Below the pieces are notes generated by a model. It was given only the letters and a program-made list of their open reading frames with translations, did not search any database and was not told where the DNA came from. Made by a program: the position numbers and the translations under genes. DNA of 62,371 nt, counting the filler. It is 19 parts of 19 records of this genome, joined end to end, with 100 filler letters (N's around TTAATTAATTAA, not from the genome) between each part and the next. Parts side by side here need not be neighbours in the genome. Positions count along the whole stretch, not along the records: positions 40,034 to 44,178 come from SRR9670534_1530; 18 more parts are not named here. The stretch is one strand, 5' to 3'. Below are positions 7,144 to 61,992 of the stretch, one piece after another. Position 1 is the first letter of the stretch. The number at the start of each line of letters is the position of its first letter.

Positions 7144-7393
7144 TGGTATTCAGTACGTACCTAATTATGGACCGGCTTACGGTAATTACGGAATTTTACG
7201 GTATGTGCGTAGTAGGCAATGCTACTAAGCACAAGTTGTGCTACACAACATAGTATGTTGAACATACATACCTAGGTACATAGACGCAGCGTGTATCAAG
7301 TGTGTGGTCGAATAATAGACGTTCTCTTTATTAAAGAGAAATATAATTATATTTGATGTCAGTTGTAGGATCATTCCAAAATTTGGAATCCAA

Positions 7394-8983
7394 ATGATCA
7401 GAATTGTTTTGTTTACATTCCTTCTCACTGTCGGCTTTTACGGAGTCGGCGCAACGTCGTCAGGTAAACAGTCAATCAGAACTTTGTTCGCTGGCTTAAA
7501 TATGAGATCACTTCTTCAAGAGACTATTGGATTAATGGAAGAGTTGACGCTGAGAAATCATGAAATTTTTTATCTAATCGAAGAACATAGGATGGATGAC
7601 CTGAAGTACATTAAAGATATAGTTCCAAGCCTGAAATTTCTCACGTATAAGTCGTCAAATGTGCTAGATATTGATAGCAAAACATTGACAAGTTTGGTCG
7701 GAAAGGACGGTTCAGTTTCGGACAAAATGAAAAGCCACATTATTCCACTAATGGACGAATTTTGCAAAGATTTTGTTTCCAATGAAGATTTATTTCTAAA
7801 CATTCCAAAGCAAACTAAATTTGATATAATTATTTATACAGATGTTCCCTTTGTATTATGCTATTACATATGGTTTTATCATCTTGGTACAAAATGGATA
7901 TATTTAAGTACATATTACCCATATAATTTTGCAAGAATTCCAGTTTTCCCATCGTTTGCACCAAGTCAAACTTTATTTGATTTACCCTCAGAGTATCCAA
8001 TGTCTTTTATGAGCAGGGTTAAAAATTTTGCATTATTTTTTGTTGATGCTCAATACATGTTCTCAAACTGGATGCTCGATTTTCAGGGGTATAGAGAACA
8101 TGCCCTAAACAAATCCTATCCCACTTCAGTCAAAGAGTTGGTTCAATCTGCTGAACTTTTTCTGATTAACATGGATCCCATTATGGATTACCCCAGACCA
8201 ACGATGCCCAACGTTATTTTTGTTGGTGGAATCCACATTCCCAAAAGTAAACCAATAGTTGGTGATGGAAAGGTTACCCAGTTTCTTGATGTGAAGAAAA
8301 AGGGTATTATTGTTATGGCTTTGGGAAGTATCATGGAATCGATGCCATATGAAATGTACGTGAAATTTGCTGAAGCATTTAATACGTTCCCAGAATATAG
8401 AATTATCTGGAAAAATAAGATAGCTTTTGAAAATGTAACGCTAAAGGATCATATTTTGATGATGCCATGGATTCACCAAAATGATTTGTTGGCTTTGCCA
8501 GAAACTCGGTTATTTGTAACACATTGTGGTAATAAGGGTACGTATGAAGCATTATTCCATGGTGTACCAATGATTGGTTTCCCCCTGATTGGTGATCAAT
8601 TGTATAACTGTGCCAGGTTAAGAAATAGAAAGTTTGGCCTTGTTCTTGACATTAGCTCTTTCGTGAGTTCAGAACTGATTTCGAAAATGAAGGAAGCATT
8701 AGCGCCATCTTTTAGCGAAAAAATTAGAAAAGCTGCTGAATTTGTTGCAGATCTTCCTCCTCCTTCTTCTACTGCTGCAGATTGGATAGAAATTGTTGCT
8801 AAACATGGTGGAACGCTATTGAGACCAACAGCTGCGTACGAATTGTCGTGGTTACAATTTTATTGCGTTGATATAATAACTTTTATACTATTTTCGATAA
8901 TGGCAATTTTAATGATACTTTTTTACTCTTTAAAATGGATTAAAAACAAGTTTTGCAAGAAAGACAAGCAGAAGACTGCTTGA
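7394..8983 (+). CDS. UDP-glycosyltransferase (GT1, UGT-like), intronless, 529 aa
   Basis: Signal peptide; DYPRPTMPNVIFVGG; signature WIHQNDLL...FVTHCG...EALFHGVPMIGFPLIGDQ; C-terminal TM helix and Lys-rich tail KKDKQKTA. Confidence 0.96.
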   Translation: MIRIVLFTFLLTVGFYGVGATSSGKQSIRTLFAGLNMRSLLQETIGLMEELTLRNHEIFYLIEEHRMDDLKYIKDIVPSLKFLTYKSSNVLDIDSKTLTSLVGKDGSVSDKMKSHIIPLMDEFCKDFVSNEDLFLNIPKQTKFDIIIYTDVPFVLCYYIWFYHLGTKWIYLSTYYPYNFARIPVFPSFAPSQTLFDLPSEYPMSFMSRVKNFALFFVDAQYMFSNWMLDFQGYREHALNKSYPTSVKELVQSAELFLINMDPIMDYPRPTMPNVIFVGGIHIPKSKPIVGDGKVTQFLDVKKKGIIVMALGSIMESMPYEMYVKFAEAFNTFPEYRIIWKNKIAFENVTLKDHILMMPWIHQNDLLALPETRLFVTHCGNKGTYEALFHGVPMIGFPLIGDQLYNCARLRNRKFGLVLDISSFVSSELISKMKEALAPSFSEKIRKAAEFVADLPPPSSTAADWIEIVAKHGGTLLRPTAAYELSWLQFYCVDIITFILFSIMAILMILFYSLKWIKNKFCKKDKQKTA

Positions 8984-15486: not shown

Positions 15487-17805
15487 AATCATTTTCCTCA
15501 ACTTTTCGTGTAAAACTTTGTAATCTTCACCACGAATTAGTCTTTTTTGTTTGAAAGCTAAGTATCTCTTTGTAGATTTGTCATAGGTTTCCGCCAATGA
15601 ATAATAAAGATCTTTCAGGTAAGTGGTTTCAAATTTCTTCCAAAGTCTATAATGATGCTTTTTCTCTTTGCACATGTTTTCAATTCAAGGTGGAAAGTAA
15701 TGATTATCTTTCACATTGCACAACAGGATGTACTTGTGTACCAGGTTGCGAATTGTCACAATTAAAAAGGAGTAATACTGCTCAATGCCATTGTGCTCCA
15801 TGATTTCTTTCCAATTGATGTTTTTCAATTCAATTTCAATAGCTTTGTAATTGCCATTTCTATAATCAATGTACCATATATCTTCAGGTTTGTTGCATAT
15901 TACACTTTGGTCTAAAATACAGGAGACTCCTGTGTGATCACAGTTCAAAGCAATATTTTCTTGAATATTAACTTTGAGGATTGGTACTTGAGTACATACT
16001 AGATCAAGGACTTTATCTTGGTTGTGATTTGTAGGATCTAAAACCACTTGGTTCATATTTAAAGATTGTAACATAATAAGACACTTTCTACCACTGGTAG
16101 ATTTACAAGATAAATCTGGCCACTTGATGTTGCCAAGATTAAAATCACTGAGCAGAATGCACGGAAAATGCGTGTTGACATATTTTTCAATGATATTAAT
16201 TAATGATTTTACAACTGCTAAAGTATATGAAATATCAGGAGGAATGTATGTAGCAATTAAATGAAGTTGGGATGAATGAAGTCGCAAATCGACTGCAACA
16301 ATCTCGAAACCTTTGTTATCTTCTTCAGTGAAGTGATTCACAGGAAGACAAGACAATGTGTTACTTACAATGATTGCAACTCCACCATTAGCCTTGTTTG
16401 AAGCTCTGTCCTTTCTGTAGCTGTGAAATCTTAAATCATTGAGATATAGAAAATCACTGATTTCTGGTTTCAGGTGTGTTTCCGTCATAACTATAACATC
16501 AAAACGTTTGTTAATCATAAATGCATAAAAATTGTCTCTTTTCCTAACAATACCATTTACGTTACATAAGAAAATCTTAAGCAAATCATTGTTATCTATA
16601 ACTATCGATTCAGAGTCATTATAAAAACTATGATCAAAAGACAAGTTTACGTATGTATTATTATTAAATTCTATCTCAGTCGAAACTGAGCTTACAGAGC
16701 TATCAGAGGTGGTACATGATACATACGAGATATGAAATAGTCCAGAAGTACCTAACATTGACAACAAACTAGAGACAGAGTGTTTTGACTTAATAATAAA
16801 AACATTCGATATCCATGATTTGGGTAAAACAAAAACGCTCAAAAATTTGAAGTTTTTGTACGATAAAATTGTCGAAATACATGTAAATGACAATAAAGTA
16901 ATAAAATAAGGAAGTTGTCTGCCTTTGTAAATTATACTATTATTAAATAAACATGTAAATTTAATTATGTATAAACTAAAGTAAAATACATAATATAAAA
17001 TACCACAAAGTTGAAAAAAGCCCTGGGTAGACTCGATAGCCCTCTTTAGTTTAAAGGTAATTCTACCATACTGGCTACATCATCATCCATTAACTCTTGA
17101 GTTGCAGGTGTACTATGCTGAGCAAGTGGACCCGAAGGTGGCGCCATCTCTTTAACTTCCCAGTTTTCTAGATCAAAACCTTTTCTTACTATCGTAAAAA
17201 CAGTACCTTGATTCGTTGGGTCACTCTGTTTGGCAGCTAATTCTTTATTCAGCTCAGCTACTCTTGCTCTTTGTAGGCTGTTATGAGGAGGACAAATGTA
17301 CACTTTAGAAAAAAGAGGATGTCCCTTTAACTGTTTGGAATTTGCACGGATAGTCTTCCTGTCATCCATGCTGTTGAATTTCAGCTGTAAAAGACGTGGT
17401 CTGTTGGGGTTGCTTTTACCAAGACATTCGGCATCAACTAATTTGACTTCTGGTGCAATTGCATCAATAATTGATTGCACAAAAACTTTATCAGCAGCAA
17501 CAGAACCTTTTTCTTCCACATTTGAAGCAATAAGCATAACTCTGTTTAAGACCATTTCAATACCAGCAATAATTTCACTACATGATGATGTTGCTGACCT
17601 TTTCATATCTTTTTCCAGAAGTGACAATCGGATGTGAACCGACAATCGGATGTTAATACCATCAAGTTCATCGTTAACATTTGTGGCTAAGGCCTTCAAT
17701 TCAGCTTCGTTCTTTTTGGAGGAAGAAACTAACTTGTCAAGTTTTTGCGACATAACATCAACTTGATCCAGCTTGTCTAGTTTGTCAGCCATAGAATCAA
17801 TGGTT
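15487..17805 (-). mobile_element. CR1/L2-clade non-LTR retrotransposon: ORF1 (17046-17792) and ORF2 endonuclease (15685-16893), frameshifted
   Basis: ORF1 has a coiled coil and LGKSNPNRPRLLQLKF...VYI. ORF2 has CNVNGI, MTETHL, RKDR...GGVAI, YIPP, SDFN, VLDLV, CDH. A frameshift near 15685 continues into the 15487-15675 frame. RT domain lies beyond the contig end. Confidence 0.92.
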
Positions 17806-39544: not shown

Positions 39545-40509
39545 CTGCACAATTTAAATTATTAATAAACCTTGTTATTACTATTATTATGAATGAAAAA
39601 GTTAGTCATTCTTTATGATCGAGATTTCATAAGCGTCGCTTTTATCAGTATACTAATAATTCGAATTTTTCTATCACATACCTACAGTATAAATAAAAGT
39701 TATATCTACCTTACTGTTATTAAATGTACTTATCATAATATTATTATGGCAAGCACATATAAGGTAAGTATAACCTTTTTTGTTTGTACTCTATTTTATA
39801 TTGTGATATGCCATATATGTGCAATATTGTTTAGATGAAATGCATACTATAGATACCCACTATCAGCATTCTAATGAATTTATTTATTTATAATAGATTT
39901 TTACTTCTATATTAGGTTATAGAACTAAGGTATNNNNNNNNNNNNNNNNNNNNNNNNNNNNNNNNNNNNNNNNNNNNTTAATTAATTAANNNNNNNNNNN
40001 NNNNNNNNNNNNNNNNNNNNNNNNNNNNNNNNNAAGTCACTCACAACATCATACAGTCAAGCTACACTATAATGTTATATCAGGTACTTTATAACGCCAA
40101 CGCATATTATATTATATACTTAGTATTGTACTTACAATTAGAACAATGTACTATAGACTATAGTATACTTACATGCGTTATTATTAATAAGATTATCATT
40201 ATTATTAATTAATCTAACAACTGTAATTAAGCTTATTAAACTTATTATATAATTAGCTAATTACTAGTACATACCCATAGGCTCTATATTAACCTATACA
40301 TGTTTATTTATAGATTTAAATCTTGTATTTCTAAATACAATTAATCCAAATGGCATTATGTCTTAAAAATAATAAGTCTATTGCTGTAGGCAACGCAAAT
40401 GCTACTAAAGATAGCTTATTAATAAGCCATTATGGTACTTGTTCTATAACGTACATAAAATTATTATCAGGTAAAAAACATTATTATTAGCAAAATTAAT
40501 TAATAATAC

Positions 40510-43500
40510 TTTTTTTGTTGTAGTATGTCCCTTTGATGAAAACCAAATCTCCAGGCTTCATATCTTTCTCGCTTTTCACGTCTATAGGCAATGTATCTAA
40601 CATGTAGGCTTGATTCCAAGGCCCAATATCAAATCCAAAATCTTCTTTTAAATCCTTCAAGCATTTCCTTACCAAACCACAGCAATCCAAAAAGAAGGGA
40701 GATTCATATTCTGGATCTTGAAGAAAACAAAAATTCAAAAATTATATTTTTCTTTAATTTCAAACCTTCAGGAGTCCAATATTTCTTTCCATATGGAACT
40801 CCAATATAAGACCTTGCTTGTTCCATAAACTTTGCTCTAAGACGTTCTTTATGTTCTACATCTTGAAGATGTGACTTCTTCCTACTTCCACGATGCCTTT
40901 TCCGTTCCTTTCTTATTATTTTCTACATTTTTAAGTTGCATTTACGAAGTCTGATGACATCTTTACCTGACAGTATTAGAAAATCGTGCCAAATTGGAAT
41001 TAATTCCAATGCGGCCAGGTAAGACGCCAACAGAGATCTTTGATGATGATGACAAGTTTCCGAAACTTCGACCGATAAAAGCCTACCTTTTATACACTCT
41101 CTAGACGAGAATGCAAATTTGCACAAGTTACGCAAGTTATGGGATGACACGGAAATAGCAGAGGTAGGTAGGTAGTGAAATATTATTAATAATATTCATC
41201 GTCATCACCATATTTATAGAAGCCAGGTTGGCAAACATAGGATGAGGTTTGAAATTTGGACAGGAGAAAAAGAAGAGAGAAAAAGGCCAACTACACCTTA
41301 AGTAAACAGGTGAGAGAGAAAAGCTGCAGCACACCTGTATTAGTTCAAAACACAATAGAGGGGCTAAAGTTATACATTTACTATTATATATCCATCTAGA
41401 ACAACTAATTGTTCAATTATGAGCAATAGAAGAATCATAAAGCAGAGTCATCACTATTATTTCCAAGTTAGTATGTAGTTGGGTTGGTTGGTTTTGTTGT
41501 AGCTGGGAGGTAAAATGAACAACAACCATCTTGAAGCAAGAGAGCAAGCAAGCAAGTAAGAAATGAATGGCTTTTGTTTTGCAGAAGTAGTAGTAGCATT
41601 AATAATAATATATTGCAAACACATAGGTAAATAACGGTACATTGAATGATAAAGGAAAAGATCAATAATTGCTACTATTGTTATAAAGGGTGCTCCTGCC
41701 TCCTGAATGAAATGATCAATTGGGGCTATGTGAAGCTTGCAAGCAGCCAATCTAGAAAAACCACTTGAAAGGCACCCTACCGATCATCAGCCATCACTTG
41801 GACAAACAGGAATATTTAATAATGATGATGAGAAGGATAGTACTGACAAACATCCTTAGGAGAAGATTAAACATCCTTAGGTAGTGGACATTGGTCAATT
41901 TGACCAGGATGTTGAATAAATAAATAATAATGAAGTTTAGGCTTGGGAAACAACTGCTACAAATATTACATGATATTGCAACTTTAAAAATATATCATAG
42001 TACTACTATGATATATGTACATAATATACAATATGTAGTATATACATAGATACCCTTATTAATAATAATATACCTACTTTTAGTATACATTTTTCAACAT
42101 TATGATATATGATACAGTGGTACACACTTATATAAATAGTATTAGTGTAATACTATGTATTATATTTGATATTATTAATAAATATAATACTTTATTAACA
42201 AGTTATAATACTGTATTAGCAATTGGGTATTAGTAAATATAATTAGTTATTAAAACATATTAATTTAATAATTACTTCCTATTTTAGTAATTAATAGACA
42301 GTAATATAAGATCAATTTGATAGACATTTGTATACATTATCATAAAAGATAAATTCTCCATTATAATTTTAAATAGAATTAAACTATAATAATTATCAAT
42401 AAATAAAATTAGCAATTAGTAAATATTTATTATATATTTGACAGGTATTACTTACTAATAACATAATGCAGTAGGCTTACTTACATTCATATACATGTAT
42501 TTACATATTTGCTAAATTAAAAAAATATTTATAGTACATATCTTTCATATTATAAAATAATTATTCTCATTCTCTTTAATAACGTAAATAAAAATAATGA
42601 AAATAATAATATTTTCAATGTATAAGGCATATTTCTATAGCATTAATTACCGTAATACATATTATCGTATTATGTGTAGACAACAACAGAGCGGAGTAAA
42701 AGCTGGATTATAAATTGTACTTATAACTTATCCGCTAAAATCGATCATGATGATGAATAAAATTGAAAGTCACGTGATCATATACATCGCCATCTTTTTA
42801 CGGTCTGATAGGTATAGATTAATTACTGTCGTAAATTAAGCGTAAAATTGGTGTATATAGTGAACTACAGGTGGACAAATTGGAGAAATAATGACCATTA
42901 GGGTTGCTCAAAGGTAGGAGGCAAAAGATGAAAGAAGATAGCGTCAAGGTGTTAAGTGGCAAATACCAAACATGATCGGTCATTATTAATAATACATAAT
43001 AACAAATTTTATAGCGCTGCATAGATACATATGCTACACGTGGTGTAAAATAGGGTACGAGATATGAGTCGTAAGAAAACAAATATGTACACAATATAAC
43101 AATCCATATTTCTTGTTGTTATTATAAAGACTGTACACAGACACACACTCCTCATTATTGTTAATCCAACAATTCAAATTTTGAATTGTTCCTTCTCCAT
43201 GGAAATGTAGGTCCAAATCCAAAATGGCAACCACTATGGCTTTGACAATTTGAATGTACATAATACAGAAAAAAGTTTCCATAAAAAACATGAAAAAACT
43301 ACAACCGAATGTTTTCGAAACCCATTTTATATAACTGTAATAATCATTTTGAGCGTTCAACGTGCTAAGTTTTTTCGTAAAGTTATCATCAACATCACAA
43401 TATGCAATATAAGTAATACGTTATAAATTTGCGTAAATCATGGTACATACAGTAAATCCATGATCATCATACCTGTTTCTTCTTTCGAAACTTCTTAAAT

Positions 43501-43553
43501 GCTTCTTGCAAACTCACAGGCTCATCATCCACAGTGGTATCACAATACAGCAT
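40510..43553 (-). CDS. NlpC/P60-family cysteine peptidase-like protein, 3'-partial (exons 43473-43553, 40766-40922, 40510-40716)
   Basis: Spliced translation gives EQARSYIGVPYGKKY...FLDCCGLVRKCL...MKPGDLVFIKG, the YxGxPY / DCxG / PGDLVF pattern. 49-nt intron at 40717-40765. Attachment of the first exon is inferred from phase. Confidence 0.8.
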
Positions 43554-44278
43554 TTCTTAAGCTAGGTCAAAAAACAAAACTACATACAAAGAATTCATAA
43601 AAGGCTATAATAATAAGCAATAGGTACCTCTTGCAAACAAGTTTGAAACAACTTGCATGATACAGCCTCGTATCGTACATATCACGATTAGTAAATACCT
43701 AGGTATGTACACTGTACTTACTTTTTAGTACAATGTATACGCTAATTAGTCTACCTACATATGGTGTAACAGTGTTAGAGTAACATTATTGGCTTTGTTG
43801 CTCAGTGCAATCCATAGTCTGTGCTTACCGCGCATGTACAATGCACATATGTATTACAAACAATTGTAACTTACCACATTACTTGGTACTACATCATATA
43901 ATATTATTATATACAATAAATACATCTGTTAATAAGCTACATAAATAATTTATCATATGTACATAAATTATTTATCTAGGTAAGGTCTTTACAAAACTTT
44001 CATTCATGCTTAGGTATTTTCTGTGAGGCCTAAGGTAAACTTAGTAAAATAAAAAATACCTAAACGTTTTAGGTTATACACTGTATAACATAAAACGTTT
44101 ATTTTTTATTATTGTATTGTGCGTATTATATACAGTACGCCTACCTACGTACCAACTGTAAATATGTTTCACGTTTAANNNNNNNNNNNNNNNNNNNNNN
44201 NNNNNNNNNNNNNNNNNNNNNNTTAATTAATTAANNNNNNNNNNNNNNNNNNNNNNNNNNNNNNNNNNNNNNNNNNNN

Positions 44279-45803
44279 TTTAACTTGATGAAACTTGATC
44301 ATCAATGGAGAACAATTATGAGAGAAGCAAAAACGAAGGAATTGAAAAAGGAGATTGAGATAATGAGCCAAACCTTTGAAAGAATCATTGATGGAAAAGA
44401 TGCTACCATAAAGTCGTTGGCTAAAGACATCTCTGAAGCGCAAGAACAAAGCGCAATGAGTTCTAGAAAACATGAACAAAACATAGACACGTTGATAGGT
44501 ATATCAAATAAACTAGATGTAGTTCTGAAAGGTAATTTTTGCAGATTTTCAAAGAAGAACCATCAATGACTTAGAAACAGGGTACAACGAACAACTACAT
44601 ATACTAGAAGAAGAGTTCGACACAGAAAGGGAAAAGATTATGGAACATCACAGAAAAGAGATGGAGATGCTAAATAACATTGTGTATGGAATGGAGCAAG
44701 AATTCATCGAATGGGAAACAGAAACTAAAGCAGAATTTCAAAGCTTGAGAGATGAATTGAAGAACAGAAATGTGGAGGAAAAAGAAGCTCTTCGTGCTCA
44801 ACTCGAAATAAAGGTTCAAGAAATTTGGGAGCAATTCAAAGAAGCTATGGATAACTACAACCAAACTACTGAAGAAAGACGCCAAACCTTTGAACAGTTG
44901 CGAGAAAAGGATCAGGGCAACGCTAAGCTCATGGAACAACAAATGAAGAAGCTGCAAAAAAGAAGTGATGAAATAGCAGCAATCAAGGCTAAAATGGCTC
45001 AAAATGAAAAGGAATGGGAAGAGGCCAATAATGAAATAAAAAAGGTAAACAAGAAATTTAAAATAAGTTAATAATTTTATATAGCATTATCATCTACCAA
45101 AGTATTGTTTAAAAACGCATGTACTCTTCATAATAGAAAAAGGAAATAATGGCGCAAAAGTCACGGCAGTTAAAGGCTGAAGTCAACAGCGTTAGAGAAA
45201 ACAACAGGAAAAAATTAGCAATTTTAACCAAGCAAAGCAACGAAGCGCTAAATGGTCTAAAAGCAAAAATAGCAAAGGGTGAAAAAATTATTAAAACATT
45301 GGACCAATGTAGAAAAATTGAAACCGAGGCAGAAAAGGTTCTTCCTTTCTTTGGAACCATTTTAACCGAAGATGAAGAACAGGAAGTAAACGATGCTCTT
45401 CAGCAGATACCAAACGAACCTCTTGCGCAATGCATGTATAAATATGAGCAACTGGGCAATTTTTGGAAAAAGTTTAACAAAGTCAAGCTTGAAAGAGTTG
45501 CCATGGAAAGGGAAGAACAAGCATTACAGCAAGAAAATCTCCTCTTGCGTCGACAGCTAAAGCAGTATCTAGATGGTATATCTGTCAATGACGAAGTCAT
45601 CAGTGATGTAAACCCATTGGTTGTCGTTAACAATCAAGTTAATTTAAGGTAATCAATTAACGTGTCTTAAATTAAACGTTATGAAAAATATGCATTGCAA
45701 CTTTAGATCAATGGCCTTTTTTGACAAAAGAGTAAAGCCAGTACCAACTGTTACCATAGAGGGAGCCACATCAACTGCTGTGAAACATGCTTCCCATGAA
45801 TGA
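44279..45803 (+). CDS. CCDC65: Dynein regulatory complex subunit 2, 5'-partial (introns 44499-44544, 45045-45136, 45649-45706)
   Basis: QWRTIMREAK...QTFERIIDGKD, CRKIETEAEKVLPF, FWKKFNKVKLE, LKQYLDGISVNDEV. Coiled coil throughout. Confidence 0.93.
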
Positions 45804-56824: not shown

Positions 56825-59128
56825 CTACCAAGCAACTGAATGGCAAACACCACAAGCAATATTGTTTATTCCTCTACCTAAAAATTATTCTCCAGTCATT
56901 TACATATCAAATTATTAAAAGCAACAATTGCGCCAAAAACATGCTCCAAAAACACCAGCACATTTCGTAGTAAAAAAGTGCTCCCACCTCAACCTGAAAT
57001 TTAAACCATAAGAAAATCAACAAAAAAGAAATTCAATTAAATCCTGTGGGGAAATATAAATTAAAATGTCGCCAGATGTCGCCTATGAACCCTGGAACAA
57101 TATTGCAATAAATGGTTTTTCTAATAATATATGTGGTGATGACAAATTATGTGAAAAATATTTAATAATGATTATTTATTATTTTTTACATATATTAAAA
57201 AATATGGATTTACTATGGAAAAATCTATTATAATTTTTCCCTATGGGATTTTGTATGATAAAATTTACCTTATGGGAATCCCATAGGGGCAAAACTAGTA
57301 TGAATTCAACCATAAAAATTTATTTCCTTAAAATTAATGAAAGTTTGCTATACATTACTATTATAAAGCGCATGAAATTTAGCTTCCACCTTATGGTTCA
57401 TAGGCGACATCTTTTCTATTTTTCTTACACAGCTGTATTTTAGACCATTTTGTGATAGGATTTCTATGTTACATTTTCACTGAAAACTTATCATGTGAGG
57501 TGGGGGCCTTTTTCACTAAATTAACTAATAACTCTTTGGTCATGTACTTGTCAAAAATGTTTACAAGAATGGGACTTATTTTGACAAAAATTTGAAAGCT
57601 AATTTCTGGCACATCGTTACTAATAATGTATGTATGTACATACCACTTAAATCTTGTAGTTCCTTGGGCCATGGAGAACAAGGTTCTTCACCTAATCCTA
57701 ACTGCCCATATATATTTGTTCCCCAACCAAATATCTTTCCTAAGACAACAATATCACTAATAACAGTGCATAACAGTGAACAACAAAAATATAAAGTAAA
57801 ACATATTCAAATATTAAATTTGATAATAATAATAATAATGTATAAATAACTCATTGAAACTCTTTAACATTTATTTATATATTAATAATAATATTTAAAA
57901 AAAGTAATAATAATTTTTAATACATATCATAATATTATTACATACATTAATTTAATAGTTATAATTACACTAATTATTGATAATAAACTTTTTACATAAT
58001 AGATATATTAATTAATTAGTTGTAATAAATAACAAATTTAGTTTACAACTACTATACTTTTTTATGAAATATTCCAAAAAGTTAATATCAAAATGATTAT
58101 CAAAATTTTTTAAATTATCATCAAAATATAAAATCATACCTTGATCAGTCAATGCAAGGCAATGACTTGTCGCCACAGAAATAGAGACAACTTTTTCACC
58201 CCCAAATCCTTCCACCAGGATAGGCTCATTTACTGACTCTTGAGAACCATTGCCTAAATAAAACTTATCGCCTTTTCCCCAAGCAAAAACCTTCCCTGCC
58301 TTATTCAAAGCAATAGTAAATGCAGATCCACATTCAACTTGTACTATTTCTTCATCACAAAATGCATCAATTTTGACAAAATTTAAACAACTTCCAACAC
58401 CCTCGGAATGCCCCAATTGTCCATCGCAATTTTTACCAACTGACCAAAGGTCATTATCACTTGTTATACAATAAATGTTCCCATTTCCACAAGTTACAAG
58501 TTTTATGGTAGAATTCTTGAAAAAATCAACAATTTTTGGCTTTTGAACATTTTCTTGATCTCCATGACACAATTGGCCAAACATTCCACAACCCCAAGTT
58601 AAGAGGGTCCCTGGGTCAACTATACAGGCACTATTTCTTTCCCCAGCAGAAATATCTGTGACGATTTGTCCCTTTAGAGATTTGATTAATCTTGGATCTT
58701 TTGCAGATTTTGAGGGCAAAATCTTTGAAACAGATCTTCCCAATTCACCATGATTGTTGAATCCCCATGAAAAAACTTGATGTTCAGAAGTTAAAGCAAG
58801 ACAATGGGCTGACCATGCTGTCGGACCAATGGATACTTTGATAATGCTATGCTCGTTTAACGAAGTTATTGGAGTCGGAAATAATGACATGTATTTGGAG
58901 TTTTTACCAAAGATTTCATCGTTTGATGGCTTTCCAAAACCGCATATGAAAACTTTGCCTTCATCGGAGATGATAAATGTACAGTAAAAACCGATGGTAA
59001 CTTTTCTGGGCTTTAAATCTGACAAAGCAGAACATTTCAAAGGCGTTTTCGTTGACGGAACATCAGCAATTAATTCGGTATCTGGTCCGGAACCCCAAAC
59101 CCAAACGTTCATGTCCTTCGTACTCGTT
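56825..59128 (-). CDS. RCC1-repeat beta-propeller protein resembling a HERC2 RLD (exons 58140-59128, 57644-57739, 56825-56877)
   Basis: HCLALT..VFSWG.N.HGELG, LLTWG.G.FGQL.HG, VECGSAFTIAL...VFAWGKGD; spliced end GKIFGWGTNIYGQLG...IACGVCHSVAW-stop. Confidence 0.9.
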
Positions 59129-59709
59129 CTGTAAAATTTTCTATGGTAATGGGTATGTACAGAATTAATAAGATACAAAGTATGAATTCATTGCATAGCC
59201 TATGTACGGTACACGCCTAGGGTACCATTTTTTCAGGAAATGTTGCTGTACGGCATACCAAATGATTACCTAGATAGTGCAGTTGTATAAGTGTATGATA
59301 ACGAAGAATACATACGTACGTACAGTTCGTACGAAGAATACCTACCAGTTCGTACAAAAAATGTACACAGAATACGAAAAGTACCTACCTATGTACTGTT
59401 ACAGTACTACTGTACAGTTACAGTACTACTGTACTACTGTACATACACTTCAAACGTTGTACAACGTACGGTTGTTACACTTCATGACGAAAAGAATCTT
59501 TACTAAAGATTTCATACCTACGACGACTCATTTGTACTTCGGAAGTACAAACAAAATACGTAGTAGGGTAATAATCAACCCTGTACAATACCTTCATATT
59601 GCTGCTGTACGACATTTCAATAGTTGCTGCAGTAGAGTTACAATGACGAATGTATTGCATGTATTGAGTCATCTGTTATGGTAGTCGTACAGAATCTGTA
59701 CTACAGATG

Positions 59710-59938: not shown

Positions 59939-61992
59939 CATATATTTCTTTCATCTGGACTGATTGTATTGTCAATAAATGCAACATCGTTAAAAGAAAC
60001 GTCTCTTCTATCACTAATATCGATAGGATAAGATCGCAATGATTCATTTTTCAATCTCCATACTCGAACATTTGAGTACCCACAGCTTATCATTCTAAAG
60101 GCAATAAATTATAAGGATACCTATTTCGAAAGTTAGACTTAAGTAGATTTTGTCAATGTTACGATTTATTAATAGGATTTATAAATATCCGTACTGCTAA
60201 CCGATCGTTGTTATCAGGAAAAAATTTCATTATTAAAATAGGAACATCCGTGTGTGCTTTAGCCAAAAGTAGAACTTTGTGGCTTTGACGTAAAAACGCT
60301 AAATCGAATAAAGCTACAACATTTTTATGATGCTGATCTTTCCCAACAGATAACAGTCTTTCACCTGATTTATCAAAGCTAAAGATGTAGCATAATTTAA
60401 ACACAGAATTTCATAATTTTTTTATACTATTCATGTTTATTATTAGCAACAATAATAATAATGTTAGATACCAAAGAGAGAAAACGGAAGAACAAGATGG
60501 ATTGAAAAAAGTCAATGTTGTTCTAGAAGTCAAATCCCATATTCTGCCTACACTAGGTGCTCCAGCTTGAGCTGATGCCAATATGTTGCATTTGTTATTT
60601 ACAGTTAATGCTGAAATCTAAATTGTGAAAAATTAGGATTTATGTTACTTAATAAGTGTAACTATATTATAGTTACTATAAGTACCTTTTCCGTATGACC
60701 AACGAAAAAATTTTGTTTTAAAGAATGTATATTTATTGAGATTATAACAGCATGGCAGACATATACGATCCATTGATCATCTGATGTCCACTCAGCCTTA
60801 TACGGATGCACTTCGGATGCCAGCCGACTTGTGCCAATAACAAAAGATAGGTTCATAATGGGATCTGGTTCAAAAATCTAAAATGAAGTATATGATAAGA
60901 ATATGTGCTAGCTAGTAGCAAGTTATTATTGCATACTTTCATTTGATACATTTAGATCAGCTTATTATAAAGTATACCTTTTCTTTAACAACATCCACTT
61001 TTTTCTTAGAATGTACAGGAGAAACTGCAGTTTCGTCCAGTTTAGGAGGGTCTACTAATTCTATTCCAACTTGGGGTAACTGAGAGACATCTGTTATTGC
61101 TTTTCGATTCCCTTTTACTGGTTTTCGGGCAGCAGTTTGTACGCTTAGCATTAGTGGATTATCATCTGGACCTTTAGCACAACCAGTATTTTGCAAATTA
61201 ACATTAACGAGCTTTGCATTGGATATATCTTGTTCTAAAAAGTGTTAACAAAAGTGCGCGAAATTTAAATTTTATTTACTATAACAATGGTATAATACCC
61301 TGACTTGCTACATCTCTTTTTCTTGGTGAACCTTTCTGAATTGAATTAAATGGCAGTTTCTTCATGTGTTTGTTAGGAAAAGATATGTAGTCAAATATAC
61401 TATGCCAGTCATCTTCCTTGATGAGAACATTTAGTCCCATTTCTCTTGGCAATGGTGACAAGCCTTCTGGCGAGACACCAACGGTACCAACAGCTTTCTT
61501 ACTTATGTCTGGATGAAAACAAAGGTCGCTGGTAAAAATATTCTTTACAAAGCAGTTAGCACAAATTTTGATGTTTTTTATATGAGAATAATGTCTATTT
61601 AAATATACTGAGAGCAAATATTGTATATCCATACACAGTAAAATCCATTTCGTGTTAGATGGTGCAGCACCAGCAACATTAGCTGATGACTTAGATGTTT
61701 CATCATCTAAAGTACCGTGAGCGGTTGGACAAATAAAGGGAAATTGCAACCAAGTAGAAGTTGATCTGAATTCCTTAAATAAGTTAGAAAAAGAAATTCG
61801 TATAATTAATCCTTCTGTTGTTACTATATCCAGATGGATGACAAAATATTTTAACGGAATTGGTCGAAATATTAGGTAAAAGAATTTTCCGGTTAAGGAT
61901 AAACTGTGGCTTGATGTTTTAGGGAATAGCAAATAATTGCTAGCTGGTATGGCACCAATAATTCGAAAGACTGAACATTTTAATATTTTGTC
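59939..61992 (-). CDS. WDR90: WD repeat protein 90 (N-terminal CFA20-like domain plus first WD40 repeats), partial at both ends
   Basis: DKILKCSVFRIIGAIPASNYL, LTGKFFYLIFRP, IRISFSNLFKEFRSTSTWLQFPF; later FFVGHTEK, RIWD, LLSVGKDQH, SCGYSNVRVWR. Confidence 0.93.

Follow-up and report, generated by a model that had tools for sequence, protein, structure and literature searches.

Glycylation and glutamylation of tubulin use the same glutamates of its C-terminal tails. Glycine chains are started on these glutamates by TTLL3/8 (PMC11244163) and are extended by TTLL10, which acts only on microtubules that are already mono-glycylated and which is, by the title of the work reporting this, 'stimulated by tubulin glutamylation' (PMC12340829). 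Glycylation is the one major modification of the tubulin tail for which no eraser is known, and reviews up to 2026 agree on this point: deglycylases are called 'unidentified' (PMC11244163) and the enzymes that remove glycine 'remain unknown' (PMC12838686), while dedicated deglutamylases, CCP and TMCP, already exist (PMC11244163). Here we describe the start of a gene for an NlpC/P60 peptidase domain in a 62-kb stretch of DNA, hereafter the window, together with the eukaryotic family to which this domain belongs and its recurrent fusion to TTLL10-type ligases.

The synthetase half of the glutathionylspermidine (Gsp) and trypanothione enzymes has an ATP-grasp fold. These enzymes combine it with a CHAP amidase and have been credited with 'conflicting synthetic and hydrolytic activities' (PMC10318531). 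An earlier note, made from the letters of the window, had read the gene as an intracellular, bacterial-type NlpC/P60 peptidase of a ciliated animal and had proposed a gamma-glutamyl isopeptidase acting on glutamylated ciliary tubulin, with an antibacterial role as the alternative. In a literature search, no paper combined NlpC with TTLL10, with TTLL or with 'tubulin tyrosine ligase', some older comparative surveys lying outside this search, and the passages checked in two works on ciliary peptidases and papain-like families do not mention an NlpC/P60-TTLL fusion. The co-occurrence is already on record automatically, as some of these proteins bear the database name 'NlpC/P60 domain-containing protein' or 'TTLL10'.

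Results

Fusion of the NlpC/P60 domain to TTLL10-type ligases

A search with exon 3 of the window gene retrieved 90 homologous proteins that were 54-79% identical, and a family profile built from 28 members matched 1062 representative clusters out of 1.84 billion with E<=1e-3, of which 352 reached E<=1e-30. All named members seen were eukaryotic, and these named holders of the NlpC/P60 clade domain were without exception flagellated or ciliated eukaryotes. The TTL domain (PF03133) was carried by 32 of the 90 close homologues. Among the best 150 representatives, 62 were at least 400 aa long, and 30 of these had a TTL domain C-terminal to the NlpC/P60 domain; the only other partner within this group was a single MFS domain, which is probably a gene-model artefact. 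Fusion to TTLL domains, which the earlier note had named beforehand as a check, hence turned out clearly positive.

When the TTL domain of a coral was used as query, most of the named proteins among the best 120 matches were called TTLL10 by their sources (49-54% identical), and one was named 'protein-glycine ligase, elongating'. Judged by sequence, the fused ligase is, where checked, a glycine elongase of the TTLL10 type. The NlpC/P60 domain was present in 20 and not in 85 of the 105 identifiers first seen among these 120 matches. The 20 include proteins of Nematostella, Actinia, Hydractinia, Lingula, Asterias, Amphiura, Oscarella, Latimeria, Polypterus, Huso and Ambystoma, and fusions were seen altogether in sponges, cnidarians, echinoderms, a hemichordate, molluscs, a brachiopod, the coelacanth, sturgeons, salamanders, turtles and a tarpon. 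Beyond animals, the choanoflagellate Salpingoeca kvevrii has fused and unfused isoforms from one transcript cluster, and in the cryptophyte Guillardia theta the fusion is collinear and 696 aa long, with a ligase part that is only 26% identical and untyped.

Of 28 pairs of fused proteins compared, 27 gave both values, and in each of these the TTL part was less conserved than the NlpC/P60 part. Between Guillardia and animals the identity was 46-50% for the NlpC/P60 part versus 23-30% for the ligase part. Stand-alone forms of about 250-300 residues outnumber the fused forms among the representatives. In several molluscs and a gar, separate NlpC-only and TTL-only models of the same species were located on contigs of equal size (P0033/P0217, P0060/P0238, P0022/P0262, P0006/P0259, P0032/P0280, P0038/P0255), and in Batillaria the locus tags of the two models are three apart. 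Each such pair probably stems from a single TTLL10 gene, whose model was split or which has alternative isoforms.

Active-site residues and cellular location

Residues were counted in a profile alignment of 372 family proteins, the denominators being the sequences with a residue in the respective column. The catalytic Cys (363/363), the His (360/360), a Glu two residues past this His (360/360) and an Arg on the next strand (354/354) showed no exception. In a MAFFT alignment the Cys was found in 89/89 and the His in 80/82 sequences, the two exceptions being short and probably mis-predicted models. The family His aligns with the His of HVGIY in PDB 3npf, on the strand after the G-D-L-x-F motif; the catalytic His, which the earlier note had missed in the window and wished to see checked, is present in every homologue that covers this column of the profile alignment. 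We assume that catalysis is served by a Cys-His dyad, or that the Glu or the Arg acts as substitute third residue.

Among 238 members with both an initial M and the N-terminal motif, a crude hydropathy test detected just 1 with a hydrophobic N-terminal window, and it detected no hydrophobic N-terminus in the window product. The lack of a signal peptide read earlier from this gene extends to 237 of the 238 members tested, and on the evidence of its sequences the family is thus intracellular.

Fold and origin of the family

Fold analyses were carried out on the homologue P0079, a stand-alone choanoflagellate member (Microstomoeca roanoka by its EukProt name), and not on the partial product of the window. 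The AlphaFold2 (AF2) model of P0079 has a predicted local distance difference test score (pLDDT) above 90 in its core. Foldseek returned 41 PDB matches at E<=1e-3 for this model, and the matches listed were non-permuted NlpC/P60 domains. Alignment with solved NlpC/P60 structures by VIA-align gave Z up to 12.5 and a root-mean-square deviation (rmsd) of 2.7-3.3 A over 119-125 aligned residues. These comparisons indicate that the family has a non-permuted NlpC/P60 fold, in agreement with the motif order noted before. The best PDB profile matches were dipeptidyl-peptidase VI entries (3npf, E 0.0013, and 3pvq), with which the DC-x-G, QAY, GDL-x-F and H-V-x-I motifs align. We take these entries to be gamma-D-glutamyl-L-diamino-acid endopeptidases, with a chemistry close to that required at the gamma-glutamyl branch of the tubulin side chain.

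The family alignment also contains a conserved extension behind the core (P0079 about 185-225), DSY-x-F ... YHF-x-SID-x-WL-x-G-x-C-x-S-x-C-x-x-H-x-W, whose conserved Cys and His positions might bind metal. The confidence of the P0079 model declines beyond residue 220. In the ESM Atlas, which was used for leads only, clusters are named NlpC/P60 domain-containing protein, and the commonest recorded phyla are Chordata and Fornicata.

Prokaryotic relatives were sought by a pattern scan for the clade motifs in one genome per species of 185,579 prokaryote species, an approach that detects only relatives sharing these motifs. There were 23 pattern matches, and a single locus was confirmed: L001 (1-6759), on a 1.7-Mb contig of a GTDB species genome labelled as an uncultured Desulfobacterium metagenome-assembled genome (MAG). 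This DNA has 21-31% GC, holds 2 open reading frames (ORFs) of at least 80 aa under genetic code table 11 versus 40 under the ciliate code, and contains an intron-interrupted homologue of the NlpC/P60 clade. On these grounds L001 was rejected as a bacterial member and regarded as ciliate-like eukaryotic DNA under a bacterial label. No prokaryotic member of the clade was found within the limits of this motif scan, and the clade is old in eukaryotes and not recently transferred. The term 'bacterial-type' used for the window gene is thus appropriate for the fold, but not otherwise, as the clade is old and distinct from bacterial members.

The gene in the window

The window consists of 19 short contigs that were joined artificially: a pattern of N's around TTAATTAATTAA occurs 18 times versus 0.15 times expected (Table 1). 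The peptidase gene sits on a single 4145-nt contig and comprises the start of a minus-strand gene with three GT-AG-spliced exons and 148 stop-free codons in total. An in-frame TAA is located two codons upstream of the ATG of exon 1. The first two introns contrast in length (2550 nt vs 49 nt).

The exons are judged to be real because of their tblastn matches and because the spliced product is collinear with the family alignment over both exon junctions. With 9 of the 90 homologues as queries, the matches in the whole window were exons 2 and 3 only (E 1e-20 to 1e-34). N-terminal pieces of homologues had exon 1 as their best window match in 5 of 5 cases, each match stopping exactly at the donor (43473), with E 1.7e-4 to 0.026. 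In homologues the N-terminal motif is preceded by about 15-30 further residues, which makes an additional upstream exon of the window gene possible. A Pfam scan of exons 1 and 2 taken separately matched no family. All clade motifs (LQxxFxxF/Y, GVPY-x-KKY, LDCCGLVR, WNQAY and MKPGDLVF) were found in the window exons, and the region almost certainly belongs to the TTLL10-associated NlpC/P60 clade, of which it is an ordinary, truncated copy that adds nothing special.

Several statements of the earlier note concern this gene directly. The motifs ARSYIGVPY, LDCCGLV and MKPGDLVF and the N-terminal peptide that it quoted all lie on the minus strand within the exons of Table 1. Its view of a spliced eukaryotic gene that is not bacterial contamination was confirmed by the introns and by the eukaryotic origin of every named homologue seen. 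The exon with the catalytic His is indeed missing, since the contig stops 476 nt past the donor of exon 3 (at 40034) and no frame of the window matches this part.

Table 1. Positions of the peptidase gene, the artificial joins and genes of unlinked contigs in the window
Feature	Position	Strand	Remarks
Contig with peptidase gene	40034-44178		single contig
Exon 1	43473..43553	-	ATG + 27 codons; conserved N-terminal motif; ends SLQEAFKKFRKKKQ; GT donor at 43472
Intron 1	40923..43472	-	2550 nt, GT..AG; exon 1/exon 2 junction collinear in family alignment
Exon 2	40766..40922	-	basic helical linker and beginning of NlpC/P60 core; ends ARSYIGVPYGKKYWTPE
Intron 2	40717..40765	-	49 nt, GT..AG
Exon 3	40510..40716	-	LDCCGLV, WNQAY, MKPGDLVF; holds MKPGDLVFIKGTYYNKK; ends at GT donor, phase 1
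Putative catalytic Cys codon	40684..40682	-	first Cys of LDCCGLV; aligns with Cys of DCSG motif in PDB 3npf
Start of intron 3	40034..40509	-	reaches contig end; no His-strand exon
Linker	39934..40033	none	N/TTAATTAATTAA/N; artificial join to preceding contig
Linker	44179..44278	none	N/TTAATTAATTAA/N; artificial join to following contig
All linkers	2419, 4631, 6907, 9059, 11503, 15431, 17850, 20777, 28035, 30845, 33378, 39978, 44223, 49084, 51483, 53655, 55970, 59780		N..TTAATTAATTAA..N
UDP-glucuronosyltransferase	7319-8983	+	other, unlinked contig
Long interspersed nuclear element (LINE)-like endonuclease/reverse-transcriptase ORF	15685-17079	-	other, unlinked contig
Multi-exon coiled-coil gene	44279-45652	+	next contig; weak NYD-SP28_assoc match
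RCC1-repeat protein	58012-59187	-	other, unlinked contig
CFA20 domain (cilia/flagella-associated protein 20)	61279-61992	-	other, unlinked contig

As the window is made of unlinked contigs, neighbouring genes give no context for the peptidase gene. Besides the genes of Table 1, a C2H2 zinc finger gene is found on the other contigs. The multi-exon coiled-coil gene on the next contig matches NYD-SP28_assoc (sperm tail C-terminal domain) weakly, below the cut-off (E 3.6e-4), and is possibly a ciliary protein of the dynein-regulatory-complex type. The genes on other contigs tell only that the assembly comes from an animal with cilia genes. The attribution to a ciliated animal thus has as its basis contigs without linkage to that of the peptidase.

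Discussion

Proposed function

We propose that the NlpC/P60 clade domain is catalytically active, as a thiol amidase of the cytosol or the axoneme, and would hydrolyse amide bonds built by TTLL ligases on glutamate side chains of the tubulin C-terminal tails. Its most likely action would be to shorten or remove glycine chains, as a deglycylase or an editor of chain length; possibly it would cut at the gamma-glutamyl branch itself, a reaction that most resembles the chemistry of the closest solved relatives. Writer and eraser would then reside in one polypeptide, as in the Gsp/trypanothione synthetase-amidases. The domain forms the N-terminal half of a TTLL10-type ligase in most animal lineages, choanoflagellates and a cryptophyte, and stands alone elsewhere or in other isoforms. 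That the domain is an eraser or editor of TTLL-made tubulin side chains, most likely glycines, is suggested by the fusions and conserved residues and by analogy, and we give it a probability of roughly 0.45. It is a more tentative suggestion that the domain of ancestral-type TTLL10 and its stand-alone relatives (choanoflagellates, ciliate-code DNA) would specifically be a tubulin deglycylase cutting glycine chains or the gamma-glutamyl-glycine branch. The absence of the NlpC/P60 domain from TTLL10 of mouse, human and frog would explain why such a deglycylase was overlooked; the frog and mouse proteins are the forms that were studied biochemically.

Several points weigh against an eraser of glycine chains. 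To our knowledge, the only deglycylases reported to date are those of Giardia, which act on 14-3-3 and are metallopeptidases. The fusion shows linked activities, not opposed ones, and specificity for glycine or glutamate cannot be read from the sequence. The 85 TTL-only identifiers of the coral search include every anuran listed (among them both Xenopus species), the listed teleosts and the listed mammals Meles and Nyctereutes, although these absences are provisional because gene models may be incomplete. Residues 105-570 of Xenopus TTLL10, without the NlpC/P60 domain, elongate glycine chains in vitro (PMC12340829), so that ligation does not depend on the domain. NlpC/P60 enzymes usually have a third, polar catalytic residue (His, Asn, Gln, Asp or Glu) on the next strand, which orients the His; among 354 sequences the column presumed to be equivalent holds Gly in 325 and Ala in 29, a register that is our own reading of the strands and of the usual spacing, and the HMMER alignment to 3npf ends just before this position. 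The curated Pfam NLPC_P60 cut-off was reached by 2 of 9 homologues scanned (28.9 and 24.5 bits; range 15-29 bits), which marks a divergent branch, and exon 3 of the window alone scored 19.4 bits (PF00877, E 0.0011) below this cut-off of 23, a low score being expected for a partial product. For the window copy in particular, tblastn with the 9 homologues, 6 of them fused, found no match to the His-bearing part or the TTL domain in any window frame.

Alternative explanations

The alternative closest to the idea of the earlier note is a gamma-glutamyl isopeptidase that removes the branch-point Glu from tubulin, thereby freeing sites for the fused glycylase or tuning the glutamylation sensed by TTLL10. 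The link to TTLL enzymes contained in that idea was borne out. The fused ligase is, however, by its similarity a TTLL10-type glycine elongase and not a glutamylase, which makes glycine side chains a likelier substrate than glutamate chains. A branch-point activity nevertheless has some points in its favour: the closest solved relatives are the dipeptidyl-peptidase VI entries and the putative gamma-D-glutamyl-L-diamino acid endopeptidase 2evr, both modifications share the tail glutamates, and TTLL10 is stimulated by glutamylation, as cited above. However, every fused ligase that was typed is TTLL10-like, the Guillardia ligase being untyped, and CCP and TMCP already provide deglutamylation. We regard this alternative as rather unlikely.

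It is similarly doubtful that the domain has a non-hydrolytic role, as a reader or anchor that would bind the gamma-linked branch of mono-glycylated tails and give the elongase its specificity, as a redox or thiol regulator of the ligase, or as a thioester transferase like the NlpC/P60 proteins of the LRAT type. The Gly or Ala at the seeming third catalytic position is in line with such a role, as are the peptidoglycan-binding, non-catalytic NlpC/P60 protein RipD (4jxb), which is among the best structural matches, and the restriction of TTLL10 to mono-glycylated microtubules (PMC12340829). Against it, Xenopus TTLL10 retains its specificity as an elongase without the domain (PMC12340829), and stand-alone forms are abundant. 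Moreover, Cys and His are invariant in 360-363 sequences over animals, choanoflagellates and a cryptophyte, while the binding-only RipD has lost them according to the title of its entry.

An amidase acting on a substrate other than tubulin, either other substrates of TTLL10 or a small gamma-glutamyl or glycyl compound, has in our estimate an equally low probability. It would accommodate the excess of stand-alone over fused forms among the representatives, and TTLL10 was first described as a NAP1 glycylase. The Gsp and trypanothione synthetase-amidases provide precedents with small-molecule substrates (PMC10318531). On the other hand, the named holders seen are all flagellated or ciliated, and the sole recurrent partner belongs to a family of tubulin-tail ligases.

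An antibacterial, peptidoglycan-degrading enzyme of bacterial origin like the NlpC proteins of Trichomonas is very improbable and, although the fold is common to bacterial peptidoglycan endopeptidases and the Trichomonas NlpC1/2 structures, this alternative of the earlier note found no support, given the missing signal peptides, the fusion to a cytosolic tubulin ligase, the large distance of the clade from bacterial members with its low Pfam scores, the lack of cell-wall-binding domains in Pfam scans of homologues, and the fact that the sole match in the prokaryote genomes reads as ciliate-code DNA.

Significance

The interest of these observations is in the link between NlpC/P60 and TTLL10 at the level of the family, not in the window copy: in organisms that range from a cryptophyte and choanoflagellates to turtles, a cysteine amidase domain with invariant catalytic residues is joined to a glycine-chain elongase. 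This link opens the question of the missing eraser to direct tests. If the proposed eraser function is true, it would complete the set of writers and erasers of the tubulin code and explain the control of chain length in cilia and sperm. In most animals a single polypeptide would then both add and remove polyglycylation, and model vertebrates would have lost part of the system. Should the eraser reading fail, there is still a widespread and uncharacterised enzyme family of eukaryotes whose functional connection with TTLL10 is clear.

Comparison with known systems

The bacterial NlpC/P60 (P60-like) gamma-D-glutamyl-L-diamino-acid and D,L-endopeptidases (3npf, 3pvq, 2evr/2hbw, MepS, RipA, LytE) have the same order as the present clade, with Cys on an N-terminal helix and His on a following strand, aligned DC-x-G, QAY and GDL-x-F motifs and a common fold (about 120 residues superposed with Z about 12 and rmsd about 3 A). 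In contrast to them, the clade has introns, eukaryotic named members, no signal peptide, no SH3b or LysM domain and a fusion to a TTL ligase. It further differs by two additional N-terminal helices with a conserved LQxxFxxF, by the conserved C-terminal extension rich in Cys and His, by the invariant Glu (His +2) and Arg, and by a Gly or Ala that seemingly replaces the usual third residue. The animal LRAT/PLAAT (HRASLS) proteins, which also belong to the NlpC/P60 superfamily, are circularly permuted, membrane-anchored acyltransferases or phospholipases, whereas the present family is non-permuted. Trichomonas vaginalis NlpC1 and NlpC2 (6bim, 6biq) are likewise eukaryotic and non-permuted, but are laterally acquired peptidoglycan hydrolases aimed at bacteria (PMC12612818), unlike the present clade, which is old and widespread and has a link to TTLL10.

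Among the known erasers that remove residues from the tubulin tail, CCP (M14), TMCP/MATCAP and vasohibin-SVBP, vasohibin is likewise a papain-like (transglutaminase-like) cysteine peptidase (PMC10318531). These erasers belong to other folds or families, none of them removes glycine and none is fused to its writer. TTLL10 of mouse, Xenopus and human is, by the names given in the sources, the same orthologue as the fused ligase half (49-54% identical). The frog and mammal models of this studied type that were examined are without the NlpC/P60 domain, while the window is without a TTL exon.

The closest parallel in architecture is found in GspSA of E. coli (2IO7) and in trypanothione synthetase-amidase (2VPM), where one chain likewise joins a papain-like cysteine amidase (CHAP) at its N-terminus to a ligase at its C-terminus (PMC10318531). 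One of their halves makes the amide bond that the other breaks (PMC10318531); for the present family the parallel is one of architecture, as seen in homologues. They differ in belonging to the CHAP and not the P60 branch, in their small-molecule substrates and in an unrelated ligase subfamily, and we claim no homology beyond the superfamily. By analogy, the present family most probably works like these synthetase-amidases.

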